A stretch of DNA of 64,000 nt. It comes from Minisyncoccota bacterium. GTDB taxonomy: Bacteria > Patescibacteriota > Minisyncoccia > Phycocordibacterales > Phycocordibacteraceae. The position numbers and the translations under genes are program-made. The first letter of the stretch is position 1. Every line of letters begins with the position of its first letter. Below, in pieces: positions 6,213-27,428 of the stretch. The notes under the pieces were generated by a model. It did not search any database. It had not been told where the DNA came from and was given only the letters and a program-made list of their open reading frames with translations. The stretch is taken from NCBI GenBank assembly GCA_022842945.1, contig JALHOO010000001.1, positions 221,830 through 285,829 of the forward strand. Reading direction: 5' to 3'.

Positions 6213-6855
6213 AAAGCCGCTAGAGGATACGCGCGTGGAGATTGCCCTCCTTCATCTGAAGAAGGTGGACGGTCTGCTGTACCAGAAAGCTCTCTTGGTT
6301 CAGGATCACCTTGCTTCTCGTAAGGCCTCAAAGCGCCGCTACTCAAGCCAGAAACTGTTCGCGTCCCTTGCAGCAAGTGTCACCAGCCAGCAGCTCTCCA
6401 TAAAAGCCGCCGATACTATATGGAGCAGACTTGAGCTTGCCTGCGGCGGCGAGGTTACGCCAGAAGCAATCAAGAGATTCCGAATCCCAACTCTCCGAAA
6501 AGCAGGACTCTCTGCTGCAAAGGTAAAGACGTTGAAGGAACTTTCTAAAGCGGTACTCTCCGGAGAGTTGAACCTCCCTGCTCTCAAGAAGTTGCCTGAA
6601 GAGGAAGCCATAGAGAAGCTCTCGAGTGTCTGGGGTATTGGACGCTGGACCGCAGAGATGTTTCTCATGTTTGCGCTTGAGCGAGAGGATGTGTTCTCTC
6701 CGGGAGACTTGGGTCTTCGCCGCTCCATAGAAACCCTCTACAGTCTCCCCAAGGACGTACATGTACGAGAGATTGAGGCTATAGCACAAGTCTGGTCTCC
6801 GCATCGAACCTTCGCGTCGAGAGTGTTGTGGAGGATTCGGGATGTGCAGGGTTAG
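6166..6855 (+). CDS. HhH-GPD family DNA glycosylase (AlkA/3-methyladenine glycosylase II-like)
   Basis: Helix-hairpin-helix GIGRWTAEMFLMFAL followed by the catalytic Asp region (DVFSPGD); start possibly at 6202. Confidence 0.6.
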   Translation: MKRTMGFSILARMPSKKPLEDTRVEIALLHLKKVDGLLYQKALLVQDHLASRKASKRRYSSQKLFASLAASVTSQQLSIKAADTIWSRLELACGGEVTPEAIKRFRIPTLRKAGLSAAKVKTLKELSKAVLSGELNLPALKKLPEEEAIEKLSSVWGIGRWTAEMFLMFALEREDVFSPGDLGLRRSIETLYSLPKDVHVREIEAIAQVWSPHRTFASRVLWRIRDVQG

Positions 6856-6910
6856 AGATACCTACACTTTACAAAACTATAAATATAGTGTATTATATTT
6901 ATAGGCAACG

Positions 6911-7342
6911 ATGCCCGGGCAGGAATGCCCTCAATCACCCGGAAGGGTCCTAGGAATAGGAGAAGGTACCTTGAATAACGTTCAGAGACTGATGGTTGGC
7001 AGTGCGAATCTCAATCAGATGCGTGCCGAAATCAAGATGGTAGTGAGTACGGTGGCGTCCATGATTAACGCCAATACGGGAACGCATTCCCAAAACAAGT
7101 CGGGCGTTTACTGGATCATCGACACCAAGCGCTTCACCCGGATCTACTGCCGCGATTCTGAGGAGGTGTCGCGGCGAGACTACATGCTCTACTGCTCCTC
7201 CCAGAAGAGCGACAAGGAGATGAGTCTCATCGACGTTGTCGAGGCACATCAGAGCCTCGAAGGATTCCTGGAATGGGCCATGGACCTCTACCCCGAACTT
7301 CGCGCGCAGTTGAAACCAATCTTTGAGGCCGCCGAGCTCTAA
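6911..7342 (+). CDS. hypothetical protein (outermost gene of array II)
   Basis: 143-aa ORF followed by a terminator hairpin and then repeat A4. Confidence 0.4.
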   Translation: MPGQECPQSPGRVLGIGEGTLNNVQRLMVGSANLNQMRAEIKMVVSTVASMINANTGTHSQNKSGVYWIIDTKRFTRIYCRDSEEVSRRDYMLYCSSQKSDKEMSLIDVVEAHQSLEGFLEWAMDLYPELRAQLKPIFEAAEL

Positions 7343-23676: not shown

Positions 23677-23916
23677 TCAAGGACGGCTGATTCCCGTGAT
23701 CAGAGCAAGGACAACATTGCCCTCGCGCTCGGGAAGCTCAACCTGAGAGCCGGCCTTCTTTCCCAGAAGCAGGGACGACCAGCAGCGGGTATTGCCAGTT
23801 GGGGTGACCGTGAAATCCTGGGGATCTCCATGGTCTCCTGCACCGACGAATTCCAGCCGAAGCTTGTCGCCTACTTGAACCACCCGCTGTGCGGGCTCGA
23901 GAGTACGTACGTTCAT
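23677..23916 (-). CDS. hypothetical small protein in high-GC islet
   Basis: AAGGAGGG RBS 4 nt before the internal Met (MNVRTLEP...); GC content is well above the window average. Confidence 0.35.
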   Translation of the reverse strand: MNVRTLEPAQRVVQVGDKLRLEFVGAGDHGDPQDFTVTPTGNTRCWSSLLLGKKAGSQVELPEREGNVVLALITGISRP

Positions 23917-24181
23917 GACACCCTCCTTCAAGGATCTAGCCGTAGTGGCTTTGTCTGCATACTAGAACTTCGCATGACGCACCGAAGGTTTCCAAACAAG
24001 AACGTCCCGCATATAGCGGGACGTTCTTTTGGTGCAGTTAGTGCGAGTGCACTGGAACCAAATCATCACAGAACTACGAGAATTGGCCGAAATCTGGGAG
24101 GTGCTCGAAGATCGTCAATAAGAAAAGACCCGCCATAGTCGTAAGACAATGGCGGGCCGATAGACTGTCGATGGTGGCCAG

Positions 24182-24631
24182 CTAGCCTGACTCCTGATAC
24201 TCCTCGAGCACGCGGATGAACGGATACTGTTGGGCGCTGAACGCGTAGCCGCGCAGCAAGTCCTTCATTCCCCGGTACTCCTCACGGTGTCCGGTGTTGA
24301 TGGAAATGCGATTCGACCACCAGTAGAAGCCGAACCCCTGCGCAGCGATAAACTCGCGGTAATGGGTCGACTCGAACTGAACGAGTCGACAGTTCAGTGC
24401 CGCACGAGCTCCGGACGTAATGCAGACACGCTGGGGTCTCGTGTCGACAGTCGACACGAAGTCCCACGGCGCATGCGCGTACCAGCCGGCGTCACGCTTG
24501 CCCAGTTCCCCGGTGAAGGGGTTCCAGGTGAGGGCGATGTGGTAGGGCTCGACGAAGGTGAAACTGGTGACGAGCACCAAGCACACCGCCGCGACACTCC
24601 CAACAATGCCTCCAATGACACGACGACCCAT
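24182..24631 (-). CDS. membrane-anchored hypothetical protein, paralog 1 (high-GC islet)
   Basis: Start MGRRVIGGIVGSVAAVCLVLV (TM helix). It is homologous to the upstream ORF and its ATG overlaps the upstream TAA (TAATG). The ORF-track N-terminal extension to 25018 overlaps the paralog in another frame and is likely spurious. Confidence 0.45.
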   Translation of the reverse strand: MGRRVIGGIVGSVAAVCLVLVTSFTFVEPYHIALTWNPFTGELGKRDAGWYAHAPWDFVSTVDTRPQRVCITSGARAALNCRLVQFESTHYREFIAAQGFGFYWWSNRISINTGHREEYRGMKDLLRGYAFSAQQYPFIRVLEEYQESG

Positions 24632-25103
24632 TACTGGGTCACCGGCGAGGCCGACGGATCGCCGCCTGGGGCTTCCTCGTTGCGAAGCTCGCGCAGGATG
24701 GTCAGGAACGGATAGGTCCGGCCGCTGCCATCGTAGGCGTAGCTCTTGAGGATGTCGTTGAGCGCGGCCTGGCCGTAGTCGCCGCGGCCGTGCCAGGACA
24801 GGAACAGTTCCAGGCCGGCCGAGTTGAATCGGACCAGCTTGCAGTTCAGCACCCGCTGGTTTGCGTTGATGCAGACCTGCATCGGCCGACCGTCGATCAC
24901 ATAGATCTGCTGGAGCCACGGAGTCTTGTGGTTCCAGCCGGTCCGAGCCAGCGGACTGATCCGGCCGGTCGTCGCGTCGAATTCGTAGCCGTGCTGATAG
25001 TTGTCGACGAAGCGCCACGAAAGGAGGAAATAGGTACCTCCCGCCAGTGCCGCAAACGCCAAGGCGACGCCGGCGATGAAGCCGATAAGCGTTCTATTCA
25101 TAC
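24631..25103 (-). CDS. membrane-anchored hypothetical protein, paralog 2 (high-GC islet)
   Basis: GGGAGG RBS then MNRTLIGFIAGVALAFAAL. Shared motifs with paralog 1: FV(D/E)xY, QVCI/RVCI, LNCKLV/LNCRLV. Confidence 0.45.
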
Positions 25104-25273
25104 TAGCCTCCCATCTCAAAGTTCGAGACAAGCACGGACAAGACCGTGCAGGTTGACGACGGATGTCGTTCCAGCACTTTTATATAACAATATTAGGCAC
25201 TATGTCAAGTCTCTAACCCCACCCAGACCAAAGCACCCTATAGGGTGCTTTGGTTCCAAAACTCTTCTTAGGG

Positions 25274-25356
25274 TGCGCCGGGGAGGATTCGAACCTCCGA
25301 AGCCGTGAGGCGACAGGTTTACAGCCTGCATGTTTTGACCACTTACCTACCGACGC
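25274..25356 (-). tRNA. tRNA-Tyr (anticodon GTA), class II with long variable arm
   Basis: Acceptor stem GCGTCGG/CCGGCGC, anticodon loop CTGTAAA and T-arm GGAGG-TTCGAAT-CCTCC; CCA not fully encoded. Confidence 0.75.
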
Positions 25357-26129
25357 GTCAAGCTCTCGTACCGGTTCTGGTGCTTCGCATTCATAGGCTG
25401 AATCTCTGCGAAGAATCTCTCCACATCGTCTCGCTTCGTTACATAAATGCAATCTGAACTCAGCTCCGATACTCGATATCCTAACCTTCGCAACATAGCC
25501 TGTAAAGCGAGAAGCAGCGGGATCGACTTATTGGTAAAGGACAGCTGCACGCCGAATCGAAGCTTATAGACCGAGCCGTCCGTATCAAAGAACCCTCTCA
25601 GGAAGGAACGCATGTATGCTTCCTTCTCAAACAGCCATCCAGGCACACCCACTTGAGCTGCCACCTTGTTTGATACCAGTCCTTGGACAATAAGCCATCG
25701 GGTAAGCTCGACCGAACCTATGTACACATCGTGAAAACCATTACTTCTGTGGCAAATAGTTGCAGGAACCTTGAACAGAGAAGTCATGAGCGCTTGCACG
25801 TAACAGACGTAGTTATATTCCTTAGTTCCGAGGGTAACGAATGTCTGATACGTGCCTACATGTCCATCACCTAGCATAATCCCGAAGAATTCAGCGAGGT
25901 CCTCTGACCGTTTTACGGGAATAGTAAGGTCAGTACGTTTTCCAAGATAGGTGCTCTTGAGTTCAGGACAGGTGGGTATTGCTAGACGCTTCAGTCTATC
26001 GAATACCGTTTTGGATGATATAGAAAGAATCGCCCCGACCTCATTAATAGTCTTATTCTGACGAACATAAAGCTCGAGCAGTGCTTCTCTATGTAAATCC
26101 TCCTCTTCAGTTGTCCATCTCCTTGCCAT
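25347..26129 (-). CDS. LAGLIDADG family homing endonuclease with N-terminal HTH domain
   Basis: Two LAGLIDADG-type motifs (FFGIMLGDGHV and GFFDTDGSV) and an N-terminal HTH (INEVGAILSISSKTVFDRLKRL). The 3' end overlaps the tRNA-Tyr 5' end by about 10 nt. Confidence 0.65.
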   Translation of the reverse strand: MARRWTTEEEDLHREALLELYVRQNKTINEVGAILSISSKTVFDRLKRLAIPTCPELKSTYLGKRTDLTIPVKRSEDLAEFFGIMLGDGHVGTYQTFVTLGTKEYNYVCYVQALMTSLFKVPATICHRSNGFHDVYIGSVELTRWLIVQGLVSNKVAAQVGVPGWLFEKEAYMRSFLRGFFDTDGSVYKLRFGVQLSFTNKSIPLLLALQAMLRRLGYRVSELSSDCIYVTKRDDVERFFAEIQPMNAKHQNRYESLTRR

Positions 26130-26177
26130 TCAAAAAGAATGACATTAAGGAGATAAAGAAACGTTAAAGTTGTATAC

Positions 26178-27428
26178 CTATTTCAATACAAGGATCACGA
26201 TATCCCTTTTGCCCTTCTTTAGCATGGCGAGGCCGTTCGCAAAGTCTCCCTCTGCAAGCTTCTGCTCACCTGAATCGACACATACACCGTTTACGCTTAT
26301 ACCCTTTCCTTCTATAAGGCGTCGCGCATCGCCCTTGGAGGACGCGAGAGAGCTTGTGGCGAGGACGTCGAGAACGGTAATGCCGGCTGAGAGGTCACGC
26401 TTCAGAACGGGCAGTATAGGCACTTCCTTAAGCACAAGTTCCCTTGCTTCCTTATCAAGCTCAGAGAGCGCTGTGTCGCCAAACAGGGCGCTTGAGGCGC
26501 CTGCTGCAGCACTAGCTGCGCGCTCTCCGTGCACAAGCGCCGTTACGCTCTCGGCTAAGGTCTTCTGCGCCTTGCGCACTCCCGGGTTCTCCTGGTGCCA
26601 GGAAAGGAGTGTATCAATCTCCTCAACGGGTATGAAGGTGTACATCTTGAGATAGCTGCCAACCATGCTGTCCGGCTGGTTGAGCCAGAACTGGTAGAAG
26701 GCGAAAGGAGAGGTCTTTGAGGCATCAAGCCAGATAGCGTTCCCTTCTGATTTGCCGAACTTCTTTCCGGTTGCGTCCGTAACGAGAGGAGTGGTAAGCG
26801 CGAATGCTTCTTTGCCGAGCTTGCGGCGCACGAGCTCAACCCCCGAAAGAATATTCGTCCACTGGTCAGAGGCACCAATCTGCAGGTCTACTCCCTTCTC
26901 CTTGTTCAGGATCATGTAGTCATAGCCCTGGAGAAGCGAGTATGCGAACTCGGTGTACGAAATACTGTCGTCCGGATTCTCAAGACGGCGGCGAATGATA
27001 TCGCGCTTTATGAGCTCGTTAACGGTGAAGTGCTTCCCGATGTCTCTGAGGAAGTCGATGAGTTTAACCTTAAGTAGCCAGTCCGCGTTATCAACCAATG
27101 TCACGTGCGTACCCACGATATTCTGCATCTGTTTCTTCAGTGCCTTCTTGTTCTTCTCGACAATCTTGGTGTCTGCGAGAACGCGCTCTCCGCTATCGCG
27201 CGGGTCCCCGATCATACCGGTGCCGCCCCCAACAAGAAGCACAATCTTGTGTCCGGCATCAGCCAAGCGCTTAAGCAAAAGCACTACCAGCAGGTTCCCC
27301 GCATGCATAGAGTCCGCAGACGGATCAACACCGAGGTATACGGTGCGCTTCTTCTCGAGGATGGTCTCAATGGGTGCTGAGGCGTGCTCAACAAGTCCGC
27401 GTGCTTTCAATTCTTCAGCGAGGTTCAT
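26178..27428 (-). CDS. tyrS: tyrosyl-tRNA synthetase
   Basis: HIGH-like SMHAGNL motif, KMSKS-like KFGKS and a C-terminal S4-like domain. Confidence 0.85.
   Translation of the reverse strand: MNLAEELKARGLVEHASAPIETILEKKRTVYLGVDPSADSMHAGNLLVVLLLKRLADAGHKIVLLVGGGTGMIGDPRDSGERVLADTKIVEKNKKALKKQMQNIVGTHVTLVDNADWLLKVKLIDFLRDIGKHFTVNELIKRDIIRRRLENPDDSISYTEFAYSLLQGYDYMILNKEKGVDLQIGASDQWTNILSGVELVRRKLGKEAFALTTPLVTDATGKKFGKSEGNAIWLDASKTSPFAFYQFWLNQPDSMVGSYLKMYTFIPVEEIDTLLSWHQENPGVRKAQKTLAESVTALVHGERAASAAAGASSALFGDTALSELDKEARELVLKEVPILPVLKRDLSAGITVLDVLATSSLASSKGDARRLIEGKGISVNGVCVDSGEQKLAEGDFANGLAMLKKGKRDIVILVLK

Follow-up and report, generated by a model that had tools for sequence, protein, structure and literature searches.

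How can a homing endonuclease gene live at an essential tRNA gene that carries no intron? In essential genes, the usual shelter of homing endonuclease genes is held to be a self-splicing intron or an intein, and to our knowledge the sole described alternative is a spare gene terminus, known from fungal mitochondrial protein genes. The question is raised by a 64,000-nt stretch of DNA from a Minisyncoccota bacterium (contig JALHOO010000001.1, positions 221,830 to 285,829, forward strand), analysed as a whole and called the window below. Here, an open reading frame (ORF) of 260 amino acids (aa) with an ATG start (25347..26129, minus strand, marked (-) hereafter) lies between two genes. One is tyrS, which encodes tyrosyl-tRNA synthetase (26178..27428 (-); Pfam tRNA-synt_1b, E=1e-73, and an S4/SYY C-terminal domain) and is outside the element; the other encodes tRNA-Tyr(GTA) (25272..25356 (-)). 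An initial annotation had described the ORF as a mobile LAGLIDADG endonuclease gene that homed into the spacer between tyrS and the tRNA. Our analysis supports the mobility and points to a different target. It is likely that the element is a cassette in which a promoter precedes a leaderless ORF, followed by a substitute 5' part of the tRNA, and that it was inserted at about position 26/27 of tRNA-Tyr, with the native 5' part left upstream.

The ORF matches Pfam LAGLIDADG_3 (PF14528) in two stretches, with E=2e-17 and 63.7 bits (cutoff 22.5), which gives it the family name that the initial annotation had proposed to look for. Both predicted LAGLIDADG motifs are present, as GIMLGDGHV with D88 and GFFDTDGSV with D184. 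Motif 1 covers residues 79-90 (AEFFGIMLGDGH; 25860..25895 (-); D88 codon 25866-25868) and motif 2 covers residues 176-186 (FLRGFFDTDGS; 25572..25604 (-); D184 codon 25578-25580). A protein search found at least 842 database relatives, the best 120 of which, all full-length, 55-100% identical and from Patescibacteria, were used for conservation analysis and for an AlphaFold2 model. G87, G89, Q95, K103, E104, F181, D182, T183, D184, G185 and S186 are invariant in these 120 homologs and D88 is found in at least 90% of them; the active site is therefore kept, unlike that of WhiA. The model (predicted local distance difference test score, pLDDT, 92.3) consists of an N-terminal three-helix bundle (helices 7-23, 28-35 and 39-48), a linker and two alpha-beta-beta-alpha-beta-beta-alpha repeats, with motifs 1 and 2 on helices 76-88 and 170-184. 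The bundle corresponds to the expected N-terminal helix-turn-helix (HTH) domain (residues 7-48, MARRWTxEEE start; 25986..26111 (-)), to which HTH families give weak sequence matches. The ORF product is thus a monomeric LAGLIDADG homing endonuclease of the free-standing, double-motif kind, with an HTH added at its N-terminus, and belongs to a large family of Patescibacteria that is dedicated to tRNA-Tyr.

Structural comparison agrees with this assignment. Foldseek ranks intein endonuclease domains at the top (7qsu, 1.5e-11), together with I-Tsp061I (2dch, 3e-10) and I-DmoI, and PDB profile and sequence searches give the same picture. The best matches, namely I-Tsp061I, I-DmoI, the PI-SceI/TliVMA intein domains and LAGLIDADG_3, share the double-motif fold and the acidic residues; the archaeal and intein enzymes, however, are encoded in rRNA introns or inteins and depend on splicing, whereas the window enzyme is free-standing. 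WhiA, a domesticated transcription factor, is also among the Foldseek matches (8dy9_I, 3hyi) and likewise combines a LAGLIDADG fold with an HTH. It has lost the catalytic acidic residues, carries its HTH at the C-terminus and is universal in its lineages, whereas the ORF keeps these residues, carries an N-terminal HTH and is sporadic. The Pfam WhiA domain stays below its cutoff (19.4 vs 23.2 bits), and no NCBIfam model specific to the endonuclease family was found. The ratio of nonsynonymous to synonymous substitution rates (dN/dS) of the ORF is 0.05-0.14, like that of adjoining housekeeping genes, and 0.05-0.07 within the window's clade. A chance ORF is excluded by this range and by the at least 842 relatives, and the ORF is a real mobile endonuclease gene whose product is probably active.

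The 3' end of the ORF reaches into the tRNA gene. The approximate overlap given in the initial annotation is exactly 10 nt (25347..25356 (-)): the codons (ac)G CGT CGG TAG are tRNA nucleotides G1-G10, and the TAG stop is U8-A9-G10. The tRNA is of class II, with a long variable arm, a G1-C72 pair and A73 (ARAGORN; Rfam 50.9 bits), and its cloverleaf has a weak D-stem of 3 pairs. As annotated, it is intact: ARAGORN reads it without interruption, and Rfam matches the tRNA alone in the window, with neither intron nor leader RNA found, which rules out an intron in this tRNA-Tyr. The ORF also lies outside any host protein. An intron- or intein-encoded endonuclease was rejected on these grounds. The GC content of the ORF, 0.473, is below that of tyrS (0.540), trpS (0.533) and a neighbouring islet (24182-25131; 0.613), as the initial annotation had noticed.

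Next, we used metagenomic relatives to identify the constant partner of the ORF. Eighty loci were retrieved with protein alignment, 75 of which are informative in that the contig reaches the tRNA. All 75 have tRNA-Tyr(GTA) 3' of the ORF. The gene upstream of the ORF is clpB in 26 loci, tyrS in ~14 of ~80 and something else otherwise, and the ORF-tRNA-Tyr unit is found in at least three genomic contexts. The constant partner of the ORF is thus tRNA-Tyr, and tyrS is incidental, so that the tyrS/tRNA spacer does not stand as the target. In the 75 loci, the end of the ORF falls within a range from 14 nt upstream to 39 nt downstream of tRNA +1, in most cases inside the tRNA 5' part; the 10-nt overlap in the window belongs to the design of the cassette and is not an accident. 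There is never room for a separate tRNA promoter between ORF and tRNA, and the tRNA therefore probably relies on read-through. Such reliance could shield a DNA segment from deletion, and the ORF might then be an inert relic, a dead endonuclease gene kept since transcription of tRNA-Tyr must cross it. We regard this as extremely improbable, because a need for read-through preserves DNA and not a reading frame, whereas the best 120 of the at least 842 relatives are full-length, dN/dS is low and the active-site motifs are invariant or nearly so.

The upstream side of the ORF carries traces of a second tRNA-Tyr. We call naive the resident type of tRNA-Tyr found in genes without an intact ORF, and we scanned the upstream regions of 83 loci for matches to its 5' part, calling a remnant at z>4 against shuffles. 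Remnants were found upstream of the ATG in 41 of the 83. One class of them ends 30 nt 5' of the start codon (…GGTCAATTGCA), another 14 nt 5' of it (…GGTCAAT). In L139 (L-numbers label related loci; WIN is the window copy), the remnant is GCGTCGGTGGTAGAGTGGTCAATTGC, 26 nt that correspond to naive positions 1-26 (z=14.7), and the remnants of L145, L150, L097 and L166 also reach the acceptor strand. The one in L145 begins 14 nt after tRNA-Thr, exactly the native start position of tRNA-Tyr in the tRNA-Thr/tRNA-Tyr tandem. Remnants of the tRNA 3' part were searched for downstream and none was found; carriage of a whole tRNA into the locus, of which they would be expected, was rejected.

The functional tRNA-Tyr that follows the ORF differs from the naive type in its D-arm. 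Of 14 tRNA-Tyr genes not linked to an intact ORF, 13 carry the naive D-arm motif TGG[CT][AG]GAGTGGTCAA[AT][CT], compared with 0 of 80 that are linked to one (p=5e-15). The core of this motif appears in 32 of 82 upstream regions vs 1 of 80 linked tRNAs, and its 54 occurrences in 2.6 Mb are essentially confined to naive tRNAs and ORF upstream regions. Relatives with empty sites have the D-arm TGGTAGAGTGGTCAATTACA, vs TAGGTAAGTGGTCAAAACAT in the window (positions 8-27 by alignment; 25330..25349 (-)), which we propose to be an immunising replacement segment; the naive tRNA-Tyr of L170 reads GCGTCGGTGGTAGAGTGGTCAATTACAACAGGCTGTAAACC. At equal host divergence, naive tRNAs are 85% mutually identical and linked tRNAs 70%. 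This diversity was too great for a simple immunity signature to be recognised by eye across the linked tRNAs, and the formal motif count was used instead. The picture of an untouched bystander tRNA is contradicted by these counts and by the displaced naive 5' copies upstream in relatives.

Some linked tRNAs are unusual in their own right. The linked tRNA-Tyr genes of L133 (999-1084), L145 (4212-4295), L147, L156 and L164 have an unusual D-arm (e.g. GACCCGTAGGGGGCGGGG) and do not have the usual D-loop sequence; that of L133 scores 38 bits in the Rfam tRNA model and was missed by the whole-locus gathering search. Furthermore, tRNA-Tyr types TATCCAAGTGGTTAAAGGAT (L001, L090, L091, L092) and TAGGTAAGTGGTCAAAACAT (window, L087, L096, L099, L172) are incongruent with the tyrS and endonuclease phylogenies; L001, for instance, has a window-like ORF and tyrS and an L090-like tRNA. 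The incongruence suggests independent recombination of the ORF and tRNA segments.

The region between remnant and ORF looks like a promoter. In 41 loci, exactly 6 nt separate the end of a TAnnnT hexamer (TATAAT, TAGAAT and TATACT in relatives) from the ATG, and the ORF mRNA is therefore probably leaderless; a Shine-Dalgarno-like motif precedes the ATG in 2 of 82 loci. In the 30-nt class, the fragment contains TTGCA(A) 17 nt upstream of TATAAT (L116). In preserved relatives the cassette would thus comprise, from 5' to 3', a displaced naive tRNA-Tyr fragment (positions ~1-26, the acceptor 5' strand and D-arm), a sigma-70-type promoter whose -35 element may be the TTGCA(A) of this fragment and whose -10 element ends 6 nt before the ATG, the endonuclease ORF, and a complete tRNA-Tyr with a D-arm unlike the naive one, the first nucleotides of which give the ORF its last codons and stop.

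This arrangement suggests how the element may work. The enzyme would cut naive tRNA-Tyr near the junction of the D-arm and the anticodon stem, and repair of the break from an occupied allele, probably on DNA taken up from relatives, would copy the cassette in. The tRNA gene would stay functional because the cassette brings a replacement 5' part that is immune to cleavage, and this part would stand in for RNA or protein splicing. With the 5' end replaced, the native tRNA piece would be displaced upstream, where it doubles as promoter region. We infer that ORF and tRNA are co-transcribed without a leader, so that tRNA-Tyr is transcribed through the ORF and would be freed by RNase P. In overlapping arrangements such as that of the window, the RNase P cut would take off the stop codon of the ORF and should thereby limit endonuclease production.

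To follow the gene across genomes, we compared occupied and empty sites. A tyrS scan of species-representative genomes gave 12 Patescibacteria loci among the matches listed. One of them carries the ORF and 6 are empty, with tRNA-Tyr following tyrS after 29-80 nt and a TATACT box ~9 nt before tRNA +1. In a neighbour-joining tyrS tree with bootstrap, occupied and empty loci interleave (L003, occupied, with L010, empty, at 98% bootstrap; L005 on the deepest branch, occupied), and empty sites are found in L008, L010, L011, L015, L016, L018, L170, L171 and L173. The closest relatives of the window, gathered by tyrS protein search and contig look-ups, supplied the presence/absence comparison that the initial annotation had called for. 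L170, L171 and L173 (tyrS 80-82% identical to that of the window) are empty, with the same neighbourhood and a normal tRNA-Tyr; L172 (tyrS 80%) is occupied, and L169 (tyrS 85%) has a decayed 58-codon C-terminal stub with an in-frame stop. The initial annotation had named a degenerate active site and universal presence in the lineage as the two outcomes that would speak against it; with the acidic residues kept and with empty relatives at hand, neither was found.

The same comparison uncovered exchanged alleles. In L174, tyrS is 94% identical to that of the window and the ORF allele just 59%. The identity of their DNA is ~88% from tyrS through the spacer to ~80 nt into the ORF and then drops to 30-65% near window position 26,050, which places an approximate recombination breakpoint at 26040..26080 (-); identity at fourfold degenerate sites is 58% for tyrS and 22% for the ORF (Fisher p=3e-6). 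Two clades with the clpB context show the reverse, with identity at these sites of 52-72% in the ORF vs 30-43% in the adjacent clpB and a distant-pair background of 29-36% (L097-L113: ORF 56/78 vs clpB 90/230, p=8e-7; L135-L139: p=4e-9). Judged by these silent sites, the ORFs in both clades are much younger than their host genes. Identity of the ORF and of the flanking ClpB correlate overall (r=0.78), with L107 and L148 strongly incongruent. Additionally, L087 (215-395) and L093 (~480-660) share a mosaic block of ~180 nt, 88-100% identical, between otherwise divergent flanks. We also noted that this block runs from the final ~70 nt of tyrS through the spacer into the first ~60 nt of the ORF, that both contigs come from one sample series, and that the two loci differ in upstream genes, ORF bodies and tRNA types. 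The shared block accounts for a tyrS 3' fragment in L093, which has no tyrS. Together, these data show that the endonuclease gene is mobile and horizontally exchanged, and speak against domestication.

Domestication was our first working hypothesis, drawn from the identical synteny of three contexts. It holds that a former endonuclease acquired a host role connected with tRNA-Tyr, for example in sequence-specific regulation of the tRNA/tyrS region, in processing or as a maturase-like factor, and is inherited vertically with occasional loss. The order tyrS-ORF-tRNA-trpS-aspS-scpAB is kept in three homologs (73%, 64% and 59% identical), conservation of the ORF is comparable to that of tyrS or clpB, with the dN/dS given above, it co-diverges overall with its flanks, as the ClpB correlation illustrates, synonymous sites are saturated in the window's clade, and WhiA is a precedent for a co-opted LAGLIDADG fold (PMC3984707). 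However, the empty sites of L170, L171 and L173 in the same neighbourhood, the pseudogenised stub of L169 and the replaced alleles (the sharp breakpoint in L174; L107 and L148) led us to drop it. The much younger synonymous sites of the ORF in two clades, the catalytic aspartates, which are kept unlike in WhiA, and a different family in the same slot of L007 and L012 speak against it as well, and we now consider domestication quite improbable.

The window's own copy gives a worn version of the cassette. The tyrS stop codon and the start of the ORF are separated by 48 nt (26130..26177 (-)) that contain no Shine-Dalgarno sequence. This spacer is a homologue of those in which relatives keep a remnant; it has ACAACTTTAACGTTT in common with L090 and is near-identical in L174. 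By alignment with L090, a deletion of ~11 nt took most of the D-arm remnant from it. What follows is TTAATGT (26142..26148 (-)), whose counterpart in L090, L092 and L095 is GGTCAATGT; from alignment and position it may be the last recognisable D-loop trace of the displaced tRNA-Tyr, a weak sign by itself. The hexamer CATTCT (26136..26141 (-)), which ends 6 nt 5' of the ATG, is probably the -10 element of a putative leaderless ORF-tRNA transcript. A consensus promoter scan of the locus returned zero sites upstream and one chance-level site inside the ORF, and the promoter proposed for the window rests therefore on positional homology with relatives. The internal site, TTTACA-17-TAGGAT (25478-25506 (-)), lies ~120 nt 5' of tRNA +1 and might serve as a tRNA promoter within the ORF, with the number of such sites in the region at chance level. 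Synonymous sites are saturated in both ORF and tyrS, as under long vertical residence, so that the window copy is an old resident, with an intact ORF under strong purifying selection and a remnant that has mostly decayed.

Several observations weigh against the proposed cassette. The window remnant is statistically undetectable (z=-1), and CATTCT is weak and was not called in the consensus scan. In the window clade, the ORF co-diverges with tyrS (fourfold sites, 31% vs 36% for WIN-L001 and 40% vs 41% for WIN-L172), and purifying selection is as strong as on housekeeping genes, which would also be compatible with a host function. L093, L149 and L009 are occupied and yet have near-naive D-arms and no remnant. 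The tRNA differences of occupied alleles extend beyond the 5' third into the variable arm and T-stem, which leaves the extent of the transferred segment uncertain. Within the tRNA, only short arms of homology (~26 and ~59 nt) are available, the remnant core could be maintained as a promoter or operator and not as a relic, and both the cleavage activity and the cleavage site are predictions.

Some of these points fit a simpler alternative, a generalised form of the initial annotation's model, in which a free-standing endonuclease gene sits upstream of an untouched tRNA-Tyr, the apparent remnant is a target-like promoter or operator, the D-arm variants are immunity mutations or drift, and no segment was replaced. 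The window, L001, L087, L107 and others have no detectable remnant, the near-naive D-arms just mentioned would be natural, the ORF stops 1-14 nt short of the tRNA in several loci, and intronless homing by free-standing endonucleases is well known (PMC3984707). This alternative does not explain why remnants extend into the acceptor strand (positions 1-26 in L139; L145, L150, L097 and L166) or why that of L145 occupies the native tRNA-Tyr position. Moreover, the remnants hold the naive D-arm that is missing in all 80 linked functional tRNAs, and the core motif is hardly seen outside naive tRNAs and ORF upstream regions. A plain insertion thus seems unlikely to us, and replacement of the tRNA 5' part remains the preferred reading.

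A second family of ORFs also sits immediately 5' of tRNA genes. L007 and L012 carry in the same slot a different ORF of ~205-225 aa (6312-6926 and 6318-6944, respectively) that reads into tRNA-Tyr, and related ORFs finish inside tRNA-Trp in L116 (5190-5849), L117 (3728-4387) and L133 (2396-3055), while another in L133 (1156-1773) ends 24 nt before an intron-containing tRNA-Thr. These proteins combine an HTH with a single LAGLIDADG-like motif (LYWAEG, LYACEG, LYWGEG). Pfam and NCBIfam gave weak HTH matches only, and hhalign aligned the second family with the first half of the tRNA-Tyr family, pairing the HTH regions and LYWAEG with IMLGDG (85% probability, E=6e-6); from this profile alignment the second family is probably of LAGLIDADG nature. 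This related single-motif family does likewise at tRNA-Trp and tRNA-Tyr. The evidence leaves us evenly divided on the full account, that the two related HTH-LAGLIDADG families are undescribed self-contained homing cassettes of tRNA genes in Patescibacteria (double-motif at tRNA-Tyr; single-motif at tRNA-Trp and tRNA-Tyr and beside tRNA-Thr). Such cassettes would invade the tRNA gene body, replace the 5' third of the tRNA with an immune version in place of splicing, reuse the displaced fragment as promoter and left homology arm, and tie their expression to the essential tRNA through a leaderless ORF with a stop codon within the tRNA that RNase P removes.

Two loci with second-family ORFs show further features. 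A candidate tRNA-Trp 5' remnant (TATAGTTTACATAACC) precedes the ATG in both L133 and L116. The gene order in L133 is tRNA-Thr(TGT), endonuclease, tRNA-Tyr, second-family ORF, tRNA-Thr(GGT) with an insert, rpmG-like ORF, second-family ORF and tRNA-Trp. In its tRNA-Thr(GGT) (1798-2082), an insert of 209 nt follows position 37 (ARAGORN intron mode) and contains a GCCTAAGATACAGTC-like stretch; a group I intron is not claimed here, as the Rfam group I model gave no match at E<=0.1.

Among known systems, the closest in working are the mORFs of fungal mitochondria, in which an endonuclease ORF arrives together with a gene terminus of foreign origin; such elements are described in atp6, atp9, cox2 and nad3 of Allomyces, Glomus, Rhizopus and Mortierella (PMC3630166, which cites Paquin et al. 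1994 for them). In both cases, an endonuclease gene, often LAGLIDADG in mORFs, enters an essential gene without an intron, a divergent substitute terminus is expressed while the native one is left as a displaced, silent duplicate, the ORF and the inserted segment are fused or overlap, and this segment has a foreign phylogenetic signal. The duplicated terminus by which mORFs are recognised is found in the relatives (remnants in 41/83, variant D-arms in 80/80), and the window keeps just a trace of it. However, mORFs concern the C-terminal segment, or 3' end, of mitochondrial protein genes, whereas here the 5' end of a bacterial tRNA gene is affected, and the cassette is therefore mORF-like in working and not a member of the described group. 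Unlike a mORF, it also supplies the transcription of the whole gene, and its protein has an extra N-terminal HTH.

Other free-standing or bacterial endonucleases are less similar in design. In bacteria of the candidate phyla radiation (CPR), LAGLIDADG genes sit in insertions of 16S and 23S rRNA genes, often group I introns (PMC11270868). They share with the present family the phylum, the superfamily and a sporadic distribution that suggests repeated acquisition, but are mostly single-domain LAGLIDADG_1 or LAGLIDADG_2, whereas the window family targets a tRNA gene and is intronless; PMC11270868 mentions tRNA 0 times. Free-standing endonucleases and intronless homing, including SegB in the tRNA region of phage T4, have been reviewed (PMC3984707). 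As cited in PMC3984707 (see also PMC13096335), SegB is also free-standing beside tRNA genes, cleaves genomes that lack it in their tRNA region and is spread through co-conversion; as described there, it is a phage GIY-YIG enzyme that neither overlaps nor rebuilds a tRNA, whereas the window family has the LAGLIDADG fold. A viral origin was rejected: a scan of viral contigs gave just two distant intein-embedded endonuclease domains in ribonucleotide reductase, and found no relative of the family beside tRNAs. A search of the literature on LAGLIDADG or homing endonucleases and tRNA genes in CPR or Patescibacteria did not find a comparable case, nor was a mORF-like 'spare-part' cassette found described for bacterial tRNA genes.

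If correct, this reading would add a third general strategy, besides introns and inteins, by which endonuclease genes colonise essential genes: the same logic at bacterial tRNA 5' ends, in hundreds of Patescibacteria lineages and two enzyme families, would mean that the strategy is general. The cassette would also drive the unusual diversity of tRNA D-arms in Patescibacteria, and accounts for tRNA-Tyr being either ultra-conserved or oddly divergent in these genomes. Frequent homologous exchange is documented by these loci among uncultured bacteria with reduced genomes. For annotation, an ORF that overlaps a tRNA and a tRNA pseudo-fragment upstream form a recurrent trap. The enzymes would provide a natural set of meganucleases with a predictable target, presumably ~20-30 bp in the tRNA gene, and a leaderless ORF coupled to RNase P processing may represent a new throttle on selfish-gene expression.

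The surroundings of the cassette show further variation. A high-GC (0.61) insert (23677-25131 (-)) separates tRNA-Tyr from trpS in the window. It holds two tandem paralogous ORFs for small membrane proteins (24631-25131 and ~24182-24625; 29% identical, E=3e-17) and a further 84-aa ORF (23677-23931), and these ORFs gave zero Pfam or NCBIfam matches. In L001 and L170-L172, trpS lies directly 3' of tRNA-Tyr, which makes the tRNA 3' side a variable insertion spot too; in L169 the spot is taken by a peptidase S8 gene and in L173 by a 101-aa ORF. A hairpin read directly from the sequence 19 nt 3' of the window tRNA (CCAAAGCACCC-TAT-AGGGTGCTTTGG; 25228..25253 (-)) might act in termination or processing; it lacks a T tail and was not called by the terminator scan. 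A gene with an NYN/LabA-like domain recurs beside cassettes (L169 4800-5313, L093 3-356, L111 5415-5948 (-), and downstream in L150). In L169 it takes the place of the first ~200 endonuclease codons and is itself frameshifted, and in L093 it lies just upstream of the tyrS 3' fragment. Finally, a TTATCCACA-like motif, identical to the DnaA-box consensus and a candidate promoter element, protein binding site or part of the cassette, is present upstream of the tRNA remnant at variable distance in many occupied loci, with copies at 26169-26177 of the window (GTATACAAC) and in L092 and L100 (TTATCCACA).

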